Shown here: positions 3,356 to 11,180 of the stretch, piece by piece | How the letters are laid out: every line of letters starts with the position of its first letter | Numbering within the stretch: the stretch's first letter is position 1 | Source: Candidatus Heimdallarchaeota archaeon | Lineage (GTDB): Archaea; Asgardarchaeota; Heimdallarchaeia; JABLTI01 | NCBI GenBank assembly: GCA_019058275.1 | Contig: JAHLVW010000007.1 | Location: 1-15,227, forward strand | Length of the DNA stretch: 15,227 nt | Direction of reading: 5' to 3' | Program-made: the position numbers and the translations under genes | Notes under the pieces: generated by a model | What the model was told of the DNA's origin: nothing | What the model saw: the letters and a program-made list of their open reading frames with translations, nothing else | The model's database searches: none

Positions 3356-3388
3356 TGGTTTTGATTCAAAAGAAAAATAACTCAATAG

Positions 3389-3459
3389 CTCACGCTTTGG
3401 GGTGTGCTCGCATCGACGCTACTCATCGCTTACAGCGATTCAAAACGCGTCAGAGTGAG
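3389..3459. other. GC-rich nested inverted-repeat element (possible structured RNA or ssDNA hairpin)
   Basis: Nested complementary pairs CTCAC(3389-3393)/GTGAG(3455-3459), GACGC(3415-3419)/GCGTC(3447-3451) and ATCGCT(3425-3430)/AGCGAT(3434-3439), set in an otherwise AT-rich intergenic region. Confidence 0.45.
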
Positions 3460-3536
3460 AAACCATTGAATTTTTTATCAAAATATACAAGCATGAGGAA
3501 AACAGTTAATCAAAAAGGAATGTCTTTTTTTTCGCT

Positions 3537-3652: not shown

Positions 3653-6600
3653 TTGATGAGCACCAGTATTTATCCCAAAAAACGCTTACCAAACAGTGTT
3701 TCACTTGGAATTACTAATCAATTAGCTGAAAATGAGTCTCTTTACGATCATATGTTTAGCTCATTCTCGAAAGAAAAACAAGAAGCAATACTATTCAAAA
3801 CGAATCATATGGCTTTTGTTTGCAGGAATGAAGGAAAAACCAGGACCAAGAAAAATGAATTGATCGTTTTCCTCGCAGTTCGTCGTGCGCTTGCTATGAA
3901 GAATCATACAAAACTACCTGTTTATCTAGTTGTTAAGTCAAAGCATGTGGGAAAACAAGTAGCAGTAGAATTAGCTAGGCACTCAACAGATTACAAACTC
4001 TATAATATGATCACATCATTAAGGAATAAGCTCAACAAAGAATTGCTTGAGAAAACCCGTACGGAAGCGGATTTCATTCTAATAACCTACCATAAACTTC
4101 GAGAGCTTGTTTTTTTAAGGGCTAATCCATCAACAGAACATATTGTCTTTGTGAATCCATTAACAACAAAAAATGGTTATAAAGAAGTCATTGCTATGGA
4201 TGATATCATAGGGGGATTGCATAGACACAAGTATCGAAAACCTCATTTCACCTTTCTCATCGATACTAATTCATTTCCTATCATGCAAAAAAAAGATTAT
4301 CAATACCTCTTAAATGTTGAAGAATGCCTTTTTTTCGGTTGTAAAGAAACACCCATGAGTAGTTTCAACAACAAACTAAGAAATACTTTAGAGCACCTTA
4401 ATGATGAGCACATACAGTTCTCTATTTTACGGGAGCTCTTCCGAAGAAAAAGCCTTCTTGATGGGTTAGATCAACGGTTCAAAGAGTCAATTACTTACAA
4501 ATTACATTTATTCAGCAATAATATCTACCCACAATACATTGAACAAAAGGATAATTTCTTCACAGAAGAAGTAATAAGTCGAAAAACTAAAATTGATAAA
4601 AAAATTTATGGAAAATTATCCCAAACACTCACTCTTTTCAATAAGAAAAAAACAACAATGACAATTATCGGAAAAAAACTAGTCGAGATTTTCGACCAAG
4701 AAAAGACAAAATACTCCTGGGAGGATCCAATTGAAACGCCACCGTTCCTACCCTTAATTGAGAAGAATCAAGACAAAAAATACGCTCTAACTAGTTTAGG
4801 TTTAGCATTACTAATTGGCACTTCAAATTTTTCCGGTGTGAAAATTGGCTTAACAGCTTTTTTGTTCTACGTGGCAAACATTCTTTACAGGAATAAGCGT
4901 TTCCCAGTCAAGCTTACTATTGGAGAAATCGTTAATTGTTACTCTAAGCTTATTGGTGCGGATCCAATTTACTTACCAACTGCTATCAAAGAATTTTCAG
5001 TCACAGAGACCATTCAGTCAGAAGAAGAGAAGGAGGAGTTGATCAAATCATTCAATTACTTTATTGAGCGAGAATTTGGGTACATAATGAATGATTACAC
5101 AAGTTATGCTGCACTAACTCTTCTAGGCGCTTTTGAAGAGCTTATGGATGAAAATGCTTTATACTTTTACGAACGATTAAAGGATTTCAAGGAGAAAAAG
5201 GAGCAAAAAAGAGAGTTTAACTTAACAGAAGCAATCTTCAATACGGTGAAAAACAAACCACTAATGATCAGAGAAGTAAGCCAAAAAGTCAAGGTGGAGT
5301 ACAAAGTAGCAAGTAAAGAGCTAAAGAAATTGGAAACGCAAGGACAAATCACTTCTATCAAAACGGTACTGAATGATGGTTTTGAACGTTTGAAGTACTG
5401 CCAACCGGAAGTATTGGAGCTGTTTCCATACCTCAAAAAGACTTGCGGCATTTGCGCTATATACAAAAGAAGGTTTCAGAATTGCCCTTTATTAGAACTC
5501 TTAGCGATTTTTAACACAACTAATTTCCCTATGGAGTATATCGGTTATATTTGTAATATTATCAAAGAATACGCTACAGCGTGCGAACACATAGTTGAAT
5601 ATACTGATTTGGAAGTTGAAGGAGAAAAAATCAGGTACACAAAAACCAAAGAAGATCTTGAACAAAAGAGAAGGGTTGTCAATGGCTCCTATCTTCTAGG
5701 ACAAGAAGTACAAACAAAGTATCTCTGTGCAACTTGTGAAGATGTGATAGAAGAATTCGGTACAGGAGAAGAGATCTTCTTTCCGCGAAGAAGAATTCTT
5801 TGCCCAAATTGCTCAACAGGTTACTACCTAAAAGATGATGGACGCATATTGATCCAGACAGAGCACAGAGATATTCTTCGTCAAAAATATTATGAGGTCG
5901 CAGGGTCGATACCAAAAATACTCAAAGAAGCGGAACCATCGTATGCTTACGTGATCTATGATCAGGTGCATGCAAACGTGGTGATACTCGAGGATGGTTC
6001 ATTAGTTCTTGAAATTTGTGATCACAGAGTTCCCTTGGAAAAAATCCAGTATATTTACTTTGCAGGACAAGAACACAAAGAACTTGAAGGATTTCTAAAA
6101 AAGCTTCTTGAAGTCAGACCGGATAGATTCAAATATACGATCAATAGGTCCCAACAAAAAGAAGAAGAGGATATAGAATTACGGGAAGGATGCGAACCAT
6201 TTACTTCAGAGCAGTATCAGGGTTTGCACAAATTTGTTGGTATAACATCCGAGGAAGAGCTTTGTAACAGCACTTTTCTGAAAGCAAGACAATTATCGAA
6301 TATAGGTGCCTTATTAAAGCATCAAAAAACTCTCCAAGAGAAAAATAAATACTCGACCAAGGTAAACAAGCAATTAAAAGAAATGTTCGATCTCTTGTTG
6401 ATCGTTCAAACAGGGATAAACTCAAGCTATTATGGCCGTCAACTTGAAGGGTTAAGCCAGAATTGTCTTTTTGATTTGATAAAAGAAGTGGGAGGAAAAG
6501 CAGGTCTTTGGACCCACGGAAGAGTTATTTCTCGACTTGTTAAAGACATATTCCTTTCTTCTACAATGAAGATCAGTAATGCTCGAGCACCACTGGATGC

Positions 6601-7477
6601 GCTGCTAAATCAAATATTTCGTCAATTCCGCTTTAAGGTCAACAAAGTGTTCCGAAAAATCGGCTGGGAACCATCCTCATTAGGACCTGGCTTGATCCAT
6701 AAAAGAAAAACAAAATCAGATATTGACCGGAAAGGATTCTACTTTGATATTATTGAGCCTGTTGGCTCATTAGCACTGATGACCTTACTTAATGCACTTA
6801 CTGATGGGTTGTTCTCTGATGCAGATTGCTCATTAGAATTAGATGGTAGTGGTCAAGAAATTTATCGAGTGAAAAACTCATCCATTGAGAAAATCGAGCT
6901 ACTAGTTGATGAAGCACTAGCAGAGCATGTGTTTTACAAAGGAGTAGGGGTGCCTTTTCTAGAAGCTTTTGAAGAAAATTTACTAAAACTCAGGCAAGCA
7001 GTCGAACTCTGGTTCCAAATAAGTGATGATGGAAAAGAACCAACCAGTGAGACGATCAGCCAATGCATGAATGCTGCTGATTATTTCCCCCTTGCTTTTT
7101 GCCCTGATGGTTGCGAAGAGGAGCTAACTATAATCAACAATTTCACAAAAAAATATTCATGCTTTTTTGAAGGTCGAGAAAAACAAGTCTTAGCTGCGAA
7201 GAAGAAACGTCAATTTTTCAGAATAAAAGCAAAGAAGAAATGGCTCATAAGCAACGGGAAAAGAGGAAAAGAAAAATTACAACTAACGAAACATCAAGCA
7301 AAAGAACATGAAAGAAGTTTGCTAGTAGTGTTAGTAATGCTCCAGCTTGGTTTTCATATGAATGGTTTCTTTGGTTATTACTCAACAAACCATATCAGAG
7401 AATTGCTACTATTAACTCAAAACCAAGCACAAAGAATCCTTACCAAAATGGTTACTCAAGGATTATTACTGAAATAG
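3653..7477 (+). CDS. cas1: Giant multidomain protein with diverged Cas1 integrase domain (degenerate SF2 RecA domain - wHTH - Cys clusters - Cas1 - wHTH)
   Basis: Cas1-like N-terminal beta domain YAYVIYD...VVILEDGSLVLEICDHRVPLEKIQYIYFAG (from aa 764). Helical domain GRQLEG (E932), APLDALLNQIF...IGWEP..LGPGLIH (H1016), GFYFDIIEP (D1032/E1035), FYKG...YFPLAF, in canonical Cas1 order. The likely start is ATG 3656. The frame continues past TAG 7475-7477 to 7783. Confidence 0.8.
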   Translation: MMSTSIYPKKRLPNSVSLGITNQLAENESLYDHMFSSFSKEKQEAILFKTNHMAFVCRNEGKTRTKKNELIVFLAVRRALAMKNHTKLPVYLVVKSKHVGKQVAVELARHSTDYKLYNMITSLRNKLNKELLEKTRTEADFILITYHKLRELVFLRANPSTEHIVFVNPLTTKNGYKEVIAMDDIIGGLHRHKYRKPHFTFLIDTNSFPIMQKKDYQYLLNVEECLFFGCKETPMSSFNNKLRNTLEHLNDEHIQFSILRELFRRKSLLDGLDQRFKESITYKLHLFSNNIYPQYIEQKDNFFTEEVISRKTKIDKKIYGKLSQTLTLFNKKKTTMTIIGKKLVEIFDQEKTKYSWEDPIETPPFLPLIEKNQDKKYALTSLGLALLIGTSNFSGVKIGLTAFLFYVANILYRNKRFPVKLTIGEIVNCYSKLIGADPIYLPTAIKEFSVTETIQSEEEKEELIKSFNYFIEREFGYIMNDYTSYAALTLLGAFEELMDENALYFYERLKDFKEKKEQKREFNLTEAIFNTVKNKPLMIREVSQKVKVEYKVASKELKKLETQGQITSIKTVLNDGFERLKYCQPEVLELFPYLKKTCGICAIYKRRFQNCPLLELLAIFNTTNFPMEYIGYICNIIKEYATACEHIVEYTDLEVEGEKIRYTKTKEDLEQKRRVVNGSYLLGQEVQTKYLCATCEDVIEEFGTGEEIFFPRRRILCPNCSTGYYLKDDGRILIQTEHRDILRQKYYEVAGSIPKILKEAEPSYAYVIYDQVHANVVILEDGSLVLEICDHRVPLEKIQYIYFAGQEHKELEGFLKKLLEVRPDRFKYTINRSQQKEEEDIELREGCEPFTSEQYQGLHKFVGITSEEELCNSTFLKARQLSNIGALLKHQKTLQEKNKYSTKVNKQLKEMFDLLLIVQTGINSSYYGRQLEGLSQNCLFDLIKEVGGKAGLWTHGRVISRLVKDIFLSSTMKISNARAPLDALLNQIFRQFRFKVNKVFRKIGWEPSSLGPGLIHKRKTKSDIDRKGFYFDIIEPVGSLALMTLLNALTDGLFSDADCSLELDGSGQEIYRVKNSSIEKIELLVDEALAEHVFYKGVGVPFLEAFEENLLKLRQAVELWFQISDDGKEPTSETISQCMNAADYFPLAFCPDGCEEELTIINNFTKKYSCFFEGREKQVLAAKKKRQFFRIKAKKKWLISNGKRGKEKLQLTKHQAKEHERSLLVVLVMLQLGFHMNGFFGYYSTNHIRELLLLTQNQAQRILTKMVTQGLLLK

Positions 7478-7783
7478 AAATATAGGAATCGCAGTTTCTA
7501 TCAACTGAATCTTGAGAGCGAAACAGTACATGAACTACTCTTTTCTTTTGAGCAAATTCCATGTGATGATTCGGATAAAAGAATCGAATTGATGGAAAAT
7601 TCAAGCAATGTTCTCGAAAGGATTGATTCTCTCTTAATGAAAATCCAACAAACCAAAGAGGGACTCCGAGTAACTACTGGTTGGAAAGGATGGAAGATAT
7701 CAGATAATATTGAGCCCATCATAGAACTAGTTGAGGAGAAATTAGCTATTAGTACAGAGCTATTAAGGAGGAAGTTTCAATGA
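7478..7783 (+). CDS. In-frame continuation of the Cas1-fusion ORF after a single TAG (probable C-terminal 101 aa; includes the 64-aa ORF 7589-7783)
   Basis: Same frame as 3653 and open for 101 codons after the TAG. It completes the wHTH wing (GLLLK*KYRNRSFYQLN) and ends in a TGA that overlaps the helicase ATG (ATGA, 7780-7783). Confidence 0.6.
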   Translation, partial: KYRNRSFYQLNLESETVHELLFSFEQIPCDDSDKRIELMENSSNVLERIDSLLMKIQQTKEGLRVTTGWKGWKISDNIEPIIELVEEKLAISTELLRRKFQ

Positions 7784-10700
7784 TTCTCAAAAAAGAAGAA
7801 GCAAACTTTAGCTCTCTCATTGTAGAGAAGTTCCCGATAAAAACAAGAACCAAACCTGAATGGCTAAAAATAGCTAAACTACCTGCAACGAAACCTGTTA
7901 CTTCTAATAATGTCTCTTGGAAGGATATTCTCCCAAAAGAAGCAGAAGCATTTACTGCTGTTCTAGAGACGATGATAAGTAGCTCTCATCCCTTTGAACA
8001 CCAAAGAGAAGCTCTCGAGTATTTACTAAATCCAAAGGATGAAAAAAAGGATCTAATAATTAATGGCGGAACTTATTCCGGTAAGTCATTGTCATTCACT
8101 GCCCCTGGAGTTGCTAAATTGTTGACAGGAGAGATTGACTTTATGGTGCTGTTCTACCCATCAAAACAATTGTTAATGGACCAATTTGAACAAGTGAAAA
8201 AAATGGTCGTTGAATTAGAGAAACGAATGGGAGTGCGATTAACAACTCGAATGTACAGCGGTGATGTTGGCAAGAGTTTAACACCAGGAAAAACAACTCA
8301 AAAAAGGGATCTTAATGATACAGAAAAACACCCACCAAACATACTCTTAGCCACTTTCGATAAGGTCTGGTTCCAGCAGCTAAATGGGAACAGTAGTCCT
8401 TTACATGAGAAAATAATGGATTGCCAGTATTTAGTCTTCGATGAAATACATGCATTTGATGGTTTTGCTGCTGCCATCATTAAGATGTTTATCCAAACAC
8501 ACAAACTAAGGAATCCTGCTTGTCAAACGATTCTTTCATCAGCAACAATAGATAGAGTGACAGAATTTCGAGATGCGTTTTTGCCAGGAGCAAAAGTTAT
8601 CACTTGCCCACCTGTTAGGGGTGAACAAGAATTCCTTGGCACAACAAGAAGGCATACCATTCCTATTCTGGTTAACCTCTGGGAAGAATTAGCGAAAATG
8701 CCAGGAAAAACATGTCTGATTTTTGCAGACTCGAAAGAAGACATAGAATTGTTGGCTGAACGGTTGTGTGCTGCCCTTAAAAAGAAGAATGAATTTTTTG
8801 ATGAAAACACAATTGCAGTAATTCATGCTGATTTGCCTTATATTCAGAGAAAAAAAGTGCTGGATGAATTACAAAAGGGAGAACGAAACATTATCCGCAT
8901 AGTGATCTCCTCTTCTGTCCTTGAGTTAGGAGTAAATATCTCAAACTTCCAAACAGTAATGAATATTGGTATACCCATTACAGGTAAGGATGGCGTTGTT
9001 CAAAGAATGGCTCGAAATCGCTCGAAACCAGGAGAACGAAGAGTGAATGTTTTCCTATTCGATTTAGCAAATGCTCGAGATAAATTCTACTGGGAACACA
9101 AGGAAATACTTCGAAAGATCCTTGAAACAAATGCTTGTAATCCCATTCTTTTCCCAAAAAGAAATGCAAAGGTTTTTGCAGGAATAATTATTTTGCTGGT
9201 CCAATATGGAATAACTTCTTTCGAAGAAATAATGAATTTCTTCCTTCAAGAAGGAAAAGTTGTTCATGAATTGGCCAGACAACAATATGTAAGACTAGTG
9301 ACCCAAATGATTCTGAAAAAAGAAAAAGGGAAACTATTATTCACTAGTAAAGGTGAAGAGCTCCTCCTAGAAAAGAAAGAGCTTGTTCCTTTCTCAATAC
9401 GAGCAATTGATCGTGGTTGGACAATAGACCAGCTGCAAGGAGTAGACTCGAACAGCTTGAATGAGAGGACGAGAGAAATCGGGAAAATAACTACAAGAGA
9501 TGTTTTAAGGAAAGGTTTCCCTGGGAACATTTTAACGAGAAACAAACAGAAATATCTTGTAGTAGGTATTGACCAAAGGATGAGAAGTGTTCTGGTTAAA
9601 AGGTATTTAATTAACCAAGGTGAGGAAATCAAAAGACTACCAATGAATCAATTATCTGACCCGAGCATTACGGTGGGGATTCTGCCAAAAATATCTGAAG
9701 GCCCTGAATTACTAGGCATTAATTTTGGCCAGCTTATTATTGAACGTAAACCTAAAGCAATAGTCAATGCTAGTCCAGACAGGATGATAAAAATAGCAGC
9801 AAATGGCAATAATACTAATTACTTTTGCTGGCAGGAATTAACTGAGGATGAAGTACAAGAGTGCAGTATCAGAGAGAAAGTAGAAGGAATAAGTTTAAGC
9901 TTAAAAACGGAAATGCTGAAAGAAAGCAAAGGAAGATCAAACAATCAAATCCTAAAACTATTTGGTAAAATACTCCTCATTGAAACGGAAGCAGTATTAG
10001 GAATTCCTGCTTCAGAGTTGGGGCAGATAAGTAACAATAAACAATTAGCAATAGTAGATAAGGGGAAAGGTAAGGGGAATGCTGGCTATTTGTACAAGCA
10101 TTTGAAAGAAGTAGCAGTGGATCTAAGAAAGAGATTGGCTAGGTGTTCATGTGCAGAAGGGTGCAAAGCTTGCTATGGAGAAGTAATTGGTGTATTACCA
10201 AAAGGCACGAAAGATAAATTAGTCTTTTTAGCGCAAGACTTGGAAAAGATAATCGAAACGAATTTACAAGAAAAACTTGAAGAACAATTAACCATACAGC
10301 CAAACTATCATGAAGGAAAGATCGTTGCTCTCTCAGACATTCACTTGACAAGTGAGTTTAGCTTTGAAGAAGAATTCTATGAAGCAATAAGCTCCCTTAG
10401 CAAACAAGCGGATATAATAATCATTAATGGTGATTTGCTGGATAAGGGAGGAACTGAAGGAGTTGAAGCAGTTAAGAAATTGCTACAAAAAGCGATCAAA
10501 GAAGGTTTCTGGTCAAAACTAGTACTTGTGCGAAGCTCGACTATACATGATGCTGCGTTAGCAAATTTTGGAAACATAATGCAACAAGACTATGCCTGGA
10601 TAGAAACAGCAGCTGGAGAAGTGCTATTTGTCCATGGAAATAAAATTGGTATTGATCCGAAAGTTGTTGCAGAAAGAAAAGCTAAAGGAGCAACGATAGA

Positions 10701-10947
10701 AGCAAAATGGGGATTAATAGACGAAGGCAGAAGGCGGTTGCCAAAAATTACCAAAGAAACTCACCTTGTGATAGGTCATTTGCACGAACGTTTCTTTGAC
10801 GAAGAGAACAGGGTTTATGGCTTGGGTCACTGGACAAGGAAAGGAAATGAATATCATCAGAAATGTCTGATGATTATTAACACTGATGATGCTTTAGATA
10901 CCCTTAAACTAAGAACTTTTACAAGTGATGTTCTTTCTTCTCTTTAA
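7780..10947 (+). CDS. YprA/Hrq1/SftH-like DEAH-box helicase with DUF1998 Zn motif, fused to a C-terminal calcineurin-like metallophosphoesterase
   Basis: Helicase motifs: Q PFEHQREAL, I GGTYSGKS (aa 96), Ia FYPSKQLLMDQ, YSGD, Ib LATFDKV, II DEIH (aa 221), III SAT, IV LIFADS, V SSVLELGVNI, VI-like QRMARNR. DUF1998-like D.GKGKG...CSCAEGCKAC (aa 789-798). Phosphoesterase motifs SDIH, NGDLLD, IHD, VHGN, GHLH (aa 848-1055). Confidence 0.88.
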   Translation: MILKKEEANFSSLIVEKFPIKTRTKPEWLKIAKLPATKPVTSNNVSWKDILPKEAEAFTAVLETMISSSHPFEHQREALEYLLNPKDEKKDLIINGGTYSGKSLSFTAPGVAKLLTGEIDFMVLFYPSKQLLMDQFEQVKKMVVELEKRMGVRLTTRMYSGDVGKSLTPGKTTQKRDLNDTEKHPPNILLATFDKVWFQQLNGNSSPLHEKIMDCQYLVFDEIHAFDGFAAAIIKMFIQTHKLRNPACQTILSSATIDRVTEFRDAFLPGAKVITCPPVRGEQEFLGTTRRHTIPILVNLWEELAKMPGKTCLIFADSKEDIELLAERLCAALKKKNEFFDENTIAVIHADLPYIQRKKVLDELQKGERNIIRIVISSSVLELGVNISNFQTVMNIGIPITGKDGVVQRMARNRSKPGERRVNVFLFDLANARDKFYWEHKEILRKILETNACNPILFPKRNAKVFAGIIILLVQYGITSFEEIMNFFLQEGKVVHELARQQYVRLVTQMILKKEKGKLLFTSKGEELLLEKKELVPFSIRAIDRGWTIDQLQGVDSNSLNERTREIGKITTRDVLRKGFPGNILTRNKQKYLVVGIDQRMRSVLVKRYLINQGEEIKRLPMNQLSDPSITVGILPKISEGPELLGINFGQLIIERKPKAIVNASPDRMIKIAANGNNTNYFCWQELTEDEVQECSIREKVEGISLSLKTEMLKESKGRSNNQILKLFGKILLIETEAVLGIPASELGQISNNKQLAIVDKGKGKGNAGYLYKHLKEVAVDLRKRLARCSCAEGCKACYGEVIGVLPKGTKDKLVFLAQDLEKIIETNLQEKLEEQLTIQPNYHEGKIVALSDIHLTSEFSFEEEFYEAISSLSKQADIIIINGDLLDKGGTEGVEAVKKLLQKAIKEGFWSKLVLVRSSTIHDAALANFGNIMQQDYAWIETAAGEVLFVHGNKIGIDPKVVAERKAKGATIEAKWGLIDEGRRRLPKITKETHLVIGHLHERFFDEENRVYGLGHWTRKGNEYHQKCLMIINTDDALDTLKLRTFTSDVLSSL

Positions 10948-11180
10948 GAGAAATTTCTTCTGATAATTGTTCAACAAATACAATGAGTTTCTCTTCTCAA
11001 ACTATTCTTCAAATGTTTTTTTACCTTGTCATAATTGTCTATAAAAAGAAGCAACGGTTCAACCCTCTGTTCTTCTCTTAAAAGCTTCTGAACAAAAGAC
11101 AATCCAAATAACTTTGTCAGTCAATTCAATTAAGGTAACATCAAATATCTTCATTTTTTATTGTAATTTATTTCCTCAAG

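Follow-up and report, generated by a model that had tools for sequence, protein, structure and literature searches.

Cas1 made the memory of CRISPR (clustered regularly interspaced short palindromic repeats) systems possible and is thought to stem from transposons, the casposons, while TnpB is the ancestor of Cas12 and the Asgard archaea are the archaeal group closest to eukaryotes. We describe here a locus of an Asgard archaeon in which a Cas1 homologue and TnpB lie together. The window, i.e. the whole stretch of DNA that was analysed (15,227 nucleotides (nt)), is the entire contig JAHLVW010000007.1 (C50) of assembly GCA_019058275.1 (genome G000, completeness 92.8%), from an archaeon of the Heimdall group. 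Its largest gene encodes a giant Cas1 homologue, aCas1, and is part of an omegaRNA–tnpB element of ~11.2 kb, for which we consider it fairly probable that this protein acts as the integrase or transposase.

The Cas1 homologues behind aCas1–TnpB loci reportedly come from Makarova et al. in 2020 (CRISPR J 3:156). The sections of Altae-Tran et al. (2023; PMC10691335) that deal with such loci distinguish two Asgard groups of aCas1-associated TnpBs, Cas1H-Asgard-1 and Cas1H-Asgard-2, and describe the loci as often flanked by repeats, with the Cas1 homologue standing in place of TnpA and proposed as the transposase; they also report that tnpB is followed by a hypervariable region lying between a conserved T and a GTTCACTCA motif. 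The present locus shares with these the Heimdall-group host, a divergent Cas1 homologue by tnpB, flanking repeats and the lack of a Y1 or serine TnpA. It differs from them in that no GTTCACTCA lies downstream of tnpB, where the omegaRNA scaffold ends in GGAACGGT and is followed by unrelated flanking sequence; the motif is absent from the related loci L001–L003 and from all the G000 contigs that bear the gene module described below. The element is a further aCas1–TnpB locus of a kind already predicted computationally: the published description, as far as those sections go, matches it, though not down to the exact family of ~1376 residues, the dead-helicase N-terminus or the partner genes. Our result is therefore a confirmation and refinement of a computationally catalogued kind, not a discovery.

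The nearest relatives of the Cas1 part are the helicase–Cas1 fusions of other Asgard genomes, which lie beside RAMP proteins in the ARAMP systems (PMC8730458). These fusions (1323–1363 residues) resemble aCas1 in size and in having a superfamily 2 (SF2) helicase at the N-terminus and Cas1 at the C-terminus. Their helicase, however, is a canonical DEAD/ResIII/Helicase_C ATPase, whereas aCas1 has a scaffold without ATPase motifs and the active helicase is encoded separately; their Cas1 part exceeds the Pfam cut-off, and they adjoin RAMP proteins instead of tnpB, LAGLIDADG or a second helicase. Three such fusions were located (L044–L046, at G041:C5, G041:C4 and G058:C9), and in L044 the gene next downstream encodes a RAMP protein, as in an ARAMP-type locus.

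Casposons also combine a non-CRISPR Cas1-fold integrase, an extra C-terminal DNA-binding domain and terminal inverted repeats, and the model of the Cas1 part superposes on the family 2 casposase 6opm (Z 18.0). Unlike casposons, the present element carries TnpB, has termini derived from a guide-RNA scaffold and encodes a protein about four times larger; because no family B DNA polymerase was found among its open reading frames (ORFs), in which only TnpB, LAGLIDADG/HTH (helix-turn-helix), helicase, MZB and phosphoesterase domains were recognized, and because no target duplication is visible, we do not regard it as a casposon. With the Cas1–Cas2 adaptation integrase, aCas1 shares the two-domain fold and the E/H/D metal site. 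Nor do we regard the locus as a CRISPR adaptation system, since no Cas2 family was found among the large ORFs scanned and the window contains neither a CRISPR or other direct-repeat array, nor tandem repeats, nor a leader. Compared to IS200/IS605-type TnpB (OMEGA) elements, the likenesses are an intact RuvC triad, a scaffold that ends at the element boundary, a flank-derived guide and no visible target duplication; the differences are the absence of TnpA, symmetrical inverted repeats instead of distinct left and right hairpins, and a length of 11 kb with three large extra genes. The aloposons (PMC8813620) were considered and rejected: they are defined by tandem giants of 3,000–6,000 residues, tRNA sites and a ParA-like gene, and Cas1 and TnpB are not mentioned in their description.

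The Cas1 core of the giant protein

The gene and the domain at issue are the following.

3653–7783, + strand: giant Cas1-homologue gene (aCas1), open to a TAG at 7475–7477, the ancestral frame continuing to a TGA at 7781–7783
5939–7126, + strand: Cas1 domain (beta domain at residues ~763–832, catalytic helical domain at residues ~836–1158)

The ORF spanning 3653–7477 on the + strand, the largest gene of the window, encodes 1274 residues up to the TAG. Since the frame remains open beyond this codon as far as the TGA at 7781–7783, the ancestral aCas1 would have comprised ~1376 residues, and the protein aligns end to end with homologues of 1355–1395 residues. A first-pass annotation, made from the DNA letters alone, had reported a protein of ~1300 residues, about four times the size of Cas1; the ratio is supported, and the ancestral frame is longer than the figure given. 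It had also predicted that standard annotation would call the protein hypothetical, and so it turned out: the named homologues are labelled hypothetical proteins, and the whole protein has no match in Pfam, NCBIfam, PADLOC or, by phmmer, among the PDB sequences.

The Cas1 motifs quoted in the first-pass annotation are all found at the residues it gave. In the beta domain, VVILEDGSLVL starts at residue 776 and VPLEKIQYIYFAG at residue 793; in the helical domain, PLDALLN, GWEP, FYKG and YFP start at residues 980, 1004, 1094 and 1144, respectively. The catalytic residues are E932 in the LEG motif (codon 6446–6448), H1016 in the GLIH motif (6698–6700), and D1032 (6746–6748) and E1035 (6755–6757) in the FDIIEP motif. 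The stretch proposed to hold a complete Cas1 domain (5942–7110) corresponds to residues 764–1152 and coincides with the part of the structural model that superposes on Cas1.

This model, which covers residues 740–1274, was built with AlphaFold2 from an alignment of 21 sequences and has a mean predicted local distance difference test score (pLDDT) of 79.5. It displays the layout of the Cas1 superfamily, a beta-rich N-terminal domain followed by an all-helical catalytic domain. When it was compared with the PDB using Foldseek, the top 50 matches were all Cas1 or casposase structures, the best being 4n06_B (E 1.9e-9). VIA-align gave a Z-score of 18.9 for the Cas1 of A. fulgidus (4n06_A; 260 residues, 3.4 Å), 18.4 for a Cas4-linked Cas1 (7mi4_B) and 18.0 for a casposase (6opm_B), with 250–264 residues aligned at 3.2–3.9 Å across the Cas1 and casposase matches. 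These alignments cover residues 97–411 of the model, and several of them add the beta domain from residue ~24–31 onwards. The resemblance of the flagged region to Cas1 is far beyond chance, and the claim of a complete domain is borne out by the structural model.

The assignment of the metal site rests on comparisons of sequence. In the helical domain of E. coli Cas1, the metal-binding residues are E141, H208 and D221. When the profile of our wider family alignment (A2) was aligned by hhalign with that of 22 canonical Asgard Cas1 proteins (A3), E932, H1016, D1032 and E1035 fell on the invariant residues E161, H226, D238 and E241. All four are invariant in the 14 full-length homologues of alignment A1, and the E, H and D remain so in A2, which includes more distant members. 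The catalytic residues are also kept in six G000 paralogs, which belong to three subfamilies and are ~27–61% identical to the window copy. The invariance of the E/H/D(E) residues in homologues and paralogs confirms the Cas1 identity of the region and indicates that its catalytic site is under selection. Altogether, the predicted structure and the conserved residues confirm that the flagged stretch is a genuine two-domain Cas1 core, in which all catalytic residues appear intact, in agreement with the metal site initially proposed. We infer that aCas1 may act as an integrase.

The connection to canonical Cas1 at the sequence level is indirect. Searching the PDB sequences with the aCas1 family profile returned noise alone (E > 1), and a phmmer search of residues 740–1274 against 1.84 billion representative proteins retrieved 14 proteins, all from the family itself, and no canonical Cas1. 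The Asgard helicase–Cas1 fusions provide the bridge: the Pfam Cas1 profile matches them above its cut-off (36.5 bits), and profile A2 matches the same fusions with an E-value of 2e-18 (1.5e-5 by hhalign). As judged by these profiles, the link of aCas1 to Pfam Cas1 is transitive and passes through the fusions. Of the two kinds of hit by which the first-pass annotation proposed to judge the Cas1 assignment, the structural one was thus obtained, while the Pfam Cas1 profile reaches the protein through intermediates and not directly.

Other domains, nonsense allele and family of aCas1

Outside the Cas1 core, three features of the gene need to be considered.

3692–5212, + strand: N-terminal Hel308/Brr2/Ski2-like SF2 helicase scaffold (residues ~14–520), ATPase motifs not conserved
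5240–5887, + strand: middle segment with putative zinc ribbons (residues ~530–745), invariant cysteines in CxxC pairs
7475–7477, + strand: in-frame TAG, which is CAG in a 99%-identical relative

A model of residues 1–745 (pLDDT 75.8) gave Foldseek top matches that were all SF2 helicases. With VIA-align, residues 14–518 of the model superposed on Hel308 (2p6r_A) with a Z-score of 21.5 (360 residues, root-mean-square deviation 6.7 Å), and the Z-score was 20.8 for both 2p6u (341 residues, 4.4 Å) and Brr2 (5gao_B; 363 residues, 4.3 Å). Neither the Walker A motif (GxGKT) nor the DExH motif is conserved in alignment A1, and no Pfam helicase family matches; invariant residues N168, P169 and L170 follow the strand where DExH would be expected. 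A helicase fold without conserved ATPase motifs points to a degenerate Hel308/Ski2-like cassette occupying the N-terminal ~520 residues, which offers an explanation for the extra mass of the protein. A reasonable origin for aCas1 would be an active helicase–Cas1 fusion that subsequently lost its ATPase function. The middle segment contains two sets of invariant cysteines, C598/C601/C611/C644 and C692/C695/C717/C720; as the pLDDT of residues 573–656 is mostly below 50, its zinc ribbons are putative. The C-terminal ~220 residues are helical, and for some homologues a winged-helix match (TrmB, PF01978) is recorded. The suggestion of a C-terminal HTH like that of casposases is therefore acceptable for the family as a loose likeness, but this copy loses its last ~101 residues to the TAG.

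The TAG itself was compared between populations. The 99%-identical protein P0002 has a glutamine at this position. The site reads T in contigs of two sequencing runs, X1 and X3, which are possible source samples (word depths 11.9 and 110.8, respectively), and C in a near-identical sister population (run X5). The presence of T in contigs of two runs indicates that the TAG is a real C-to-T nonsense allele and not a chance assembly error, and this aCas1 allele may be impaired. Read-through of the codon as pyrrolysine was set aside, the 99%-identical allele having CAG.

About 20 homologues were retrieved from a collection of 5.8 billion proteins, nearly all of 1355–1392 residues, and those with names are assigned to Candidatus Heimdallarchaeota. 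Across 301 genomes of the phylum, its occurrence is virtually restricted to a single genus, where the family is present in the genome studied here and in six of the nine others, with several copies each. The aCas1 of the window thus does not stand alone: it represents the Cas1 homologue of an element that carries TnpB and exists in multiple copies. Two ordinary Cas1 genes lie elsewhere in G000. The genome also contains shorter ORFs (~500–655 residues, on C84, C48, C33, C52, C29 and C16) that match profile A2 with E-values between 1e-9 and 1e-19; on C84, C33 and C52 they are located upstream of paralogs of the helicase–phosphoesterase gene described below, with a LAGLIDADG–HTH gene on the same contigs. 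Within one genome, this Cas1 lineage therefore occurs in two architectures, the one represented by these ORFs being the smaller. The N-terminal profile of the giants (A4) does not match the ORFs of ~700 residues that precede the shorter Cas1-like genes.

Gene module, element ends and insertion site

The neighbourhood of the aCas1 gene comprises the features below.

1–1560, − strand: first 520 codons of tnpB (Pfam OrfB_IS605 and Cas12f1-like_TNB), running off the contig start
1730–3355, + strand: gene for a LAGLIDADG and HTH_3 (XRE-type) protein of 541 residues (Pfam LAGLIDADG_3 and HTH_3), divergent from tnpB
3378–3478, + strand: structured GC-rich element of ~100 nt between the LAGLIDADG and Cas1 genes, followed by TATA-like boxes
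7780–10947, + strand: gene for an SF2 helicase–MZB (DUF1998)–calcineurin-like phosphoesterase of 1055 residues (Pfam DEAD, Helicase_C, MZB and Metallophos)
11011–11062, + strand: right terminal inverted repeat, which corresponds in inverse orientation to the final ~50 nt of the omegaRNA scaffold and has the core ATAATTGTCTATAAAAAGAAGCAACGGT
11059–11157, − strand: part of a small host gene that the element interrupts, the other half starting at C73:~45326

The tnpB, LAGLIDADG–HTH, giant Cas1 and helicase–MZB–phosphoesterase genes form a four-gene module. The same four genes are found together in genomes in which the giants are only ~40% identical and the flanking genes differ. The tnpB gene lies within 2.1 kb of the aCas1 gene, and one also adjoins the module on C27 and in loci L001, L002 and L059–L061. 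A helicase homologue lies directly downstream of the giant in all six Cas1-bearing paralogs of G000; in five of these, a LAGLIDADG–HTH gene is present within ~10 kb on the same contig, accompanied in three cases by tnpB, and the sixth is on a contig of 6 kb. On C117 there is a seventh locus, which is split, matches the giant in its N-terminal part only and has no partners nearby. In related loci, the LAGLIDADG–HTH gene occupies the same position. The helicase–phosphoesterase retains its Walker A (GTYSGKS) and DEIH motifs, and its start codon overlaps the stop codon that ends the full-length Cas1 frame (ATGA, 7780–7783). In the part of TnpB encoded in the window, residues D284, E390 and D480 align with the catalytic RuvC motifs of solved TnpB and Cas12f chains; the 3' end of the gene and the omegaRNA scaffold are on contig C73, the last 57 nt of which are identical to positions 1–57 of the window. 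Note that the tnpB products of L001 and L002 are too divergent for a phmmer match to the window TnpB at 1e-5, and that the tnpB of L061 is co-oriented with the other genes of the module. ORFs matching the module proteins, or fragments of them, are numerous in G000: 25 for the LAGLIDADG–HTH_3 protein, 11 for TnpB and 20 for the helicase–phosphoesterase (some genes being split), for about seven giant Cas1 loci.

The DNA of the structured element at 3378–3478 is conserved even where the flanking proteins are only ~40% identical. RNAalifold predicts three stems with 22 pairs, 9 of which show compensatory changes. A covariance model (R1) detects six copies in G000 (on C50, C33, C27, C73, C105 and C30), half of them away from any gene of the module; neither Rfam nor ARAGORN gave an Rfam or tRNA match for this element.

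The left end of the element lies on C73, whose junction with the window is supported by synteny with the sister genome G190. The omegaRNA scaffold is conserved at eight genomic sites (C73:45327–45490 and seven others), with compensatory changes between copies. It ends sharply in ...GGAACGGT at C73:45327, beyond which the flanks of all eight copies diverge; a conserved scaffold with a sharp 3' boundary followed by differing flanks is the signature of a TnpB omegaRNA. The right repeat of the window (11011–11062) aligns inversely with C73:45323–45375. The repeats at C73:45327 and at position ~11062 of the window hence bound an element of ~11.2 kb. The same arrangement of ends is found at G238:C17, where perfect arms of 22 bp lie 11,090 nt apart, and at G123:C9 (18 bp, perfect), which brings the independent loci with such ends to three, and motifs similar to the right repeat occur just downstream of other helicase paralogs. 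Nothing convincing in the way of inverted repeats was seen in L001 and L002, where tnpB is of a different family, and L061, with its co-oriented tnpB, shows no clear terminal repeat.

The ends of the repeats coincide exactly with the points at which a small host gene is interrupted. In a tblastn search, an uninterrupted ORF of 122 residues from G190:C264 matched positions 11157–11065 of the window and C73:45348–45187, and the uninterrupted sequence is also present at G238:C6. Where G000 has ~13.3 kb, G190 has 34 nt, the flanks being 91–96% identical; upstream of pyrE, the module is also missing from five more genomes of the genus. The left 1.9 kb of this island, outside the element (C73:43383–45326; L080:1884–3827), contains a HEAT-repeat ORF (212 residues) and an ORF of 94 residues; no full-length counterpart of it was found in the sister genomes, which offer no pristine empty site for the whole island, and a terminal-repeat test on the entire 13.3 kb was negative. 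No Y1 TnpA (PF01797) was found in the 92.8%-complete genome, so that the usual mobiliser of TnpB was not detected.

Proposed mechanism and competing explanations

We propose that aCas1 would be the integrase or transposase of the element, a role that we regard as the best-supported mechanism and as having a slightly better than even chance of being correct. Like Cas1 and casposases, aCas1 would attack target DNA with the 3'-OH ends of the element, while the translationally coupled helicase–phosphoesterase, predicted to be ATPase-competent, would unwind or trim these ends; TnpB, directed by the adjoining host sequence as the guide of its omegaRNA, would cleave sites that lack the element and so ensure its retention or its copying back. 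A more specific version, which we advance only tentatively, is that aCas1 and the helicase–phosphoesterase could carry out a polymerase-free, Cas1-catalysed transposition leaving little or no duplication, in which the copies of the guide-RNA scaffold at the ends may serve both as integrase substrate, in DNA form, and as nuclease guide scaffold, in RNA form.

Several observations weigh against aCas1 being the transposase of an omegaRNA–tnpB element. Regarding the protein, aCas1 does not reach the gathering threshold of the Pfam Cas1 profile (PF01867), which gives nothing at E ≤ 0.01, and the hhalign match of A2 to canonical Asgard Cas1 is weak (E 2.5e-4, probability 43%). Owing to the TAG, the product lacks ~101 conserved residues at its C-terminus, and the gene is no longer coupled to that of the helicase through the ATGA. 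The tnpB beside the module varies in family and orientation among genomes, suggesting that it may associate secondarily; from the sequences, TnpB may have been exchanged or re-acquired within this element family. Cas1–Cas2 and casposases carry out staggered integration that leaves target duplications. No duplication of the target site can be seen where the host gene is split, although the reference sites used are only ~60–80% identical and a very short duplication is compatible with them. The island absent from G190 exceeds the element by 1.9 kb on the left and ~145 nt on the right. Finally, the window and C27, the two closest paralogs, share only 69% DNA identity: the copies within the genome are old and thus do not demonstrate recent transposition here. 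The age of the copies, together with the lack of a duplication, keeps alternatives open.

One alternative, which we hold to be unlikely, is that the Cas1-like protein and the helicase–MZB–phosphoesterase constitute a two-gene defence or repair module carried as cargo on or beside a TnpB/LAGLIDADG unit, aCas1 being a CRISPR-less Cas1 derivative akin to the ARAMP-linked fusions and functioning as a nuclease or a sensor of DNA ends. The relatives of both proteins fit such a role, as DUF1998/MZB helicases weakly match the PADLOC models of SngC, BrxH, Cas3, DruE and DpdJ and the Cas1 part is closest to the helicase–Cas1 fusions that neighbour RAMP proteins (PMC8730458). So does the behaviour of the genes: the giant and the helicase stay adjacent while their orientation relative to the LAGLIDADG/tnpB pair flips between subfamilies, the LAGLIDADG–HTH and tnpB matches of G000 outnumber its giants, and the locus lies in a variable island in which no target duplication is seen. 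However, in three loci all four genes lie between the inverted repeats, and the pair is linked to the element termini by the helicase-side repeat, which copies the omegaRNA end; moreover, the giant is without any PADLOC match, and no other transposase candidate was found among the ORFs of the element, nor a Y1 TnpA in the genome. These features speak against a cargo role.

Somewhat less doubtful, though still improbable in our view, is that the copy in the window is a decaying pseudogene, with Cas1 inactivated by the nonsense codon, the helicase uncoupled and the element a fossil at this site, regardless of what other members of the family do. The TAG carried by the X1 and X3 contigs, where X5 and P0002 have CAG or glutamine, and the ~101 conserved residues lost argue in this direction, as do the disrupted host gene and the old age of the paralogs. 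On the other hand, the gene is intact as far as the TAG, where it shares 99% identity with the untruncated allele, and it encodes the whole catalytic domain, with no frameshift detected; the 3' extension is open over 101 codons with the ATGA overlap retained, which suggests that the mutation is recent or tolerated. A last possibility, that Cas1 writes new guides for TnpB by a CRISPR-like acquisition of spacers into the omegaRNA locus, is in our judgement very remote. It would account for the linkage of Cas1 to an RNA-guided nuclease, for the hypervariable region downstream of tnpB mentioned in the relevant sections of PMC10691335 and for the fact that the sequence past the scaffold end differs in all eight copies; but the ~20 nt past that end are nothing but the continuation of the split host gene, an arrangement usual for TnpB elements; GTTCACTCA is absent near these tnpB genes, and no repeat arrays were found in the window. 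The origin of the would-be guide in the split host gene disfavours guide writing.

For experiments, the locus offers defined domain boundaries and catalytic residues, an N-terminus derived from a dead helicase alongside a separate live one, precise terminal repeats, the split host gene and, in a sister population, an intact allele. In this Asgard archaeon, TnpB shares its element with a Cas1-type integrase. If transposition by Cas1 from scaffold-derived ends proves true, its mechanism would be distinct from those of casposons and IS200/IS605 elements, and the family would be a living case, outside CRISPR, of physical coupling between a Cas1 integrase and an RNA-guided nuclease. If aCas1 moves the element, then Cas1 integrases and RNA-guided nucleases would have been joined more than once, and nature would supply a compact combination of integrase and programmable nuclease.

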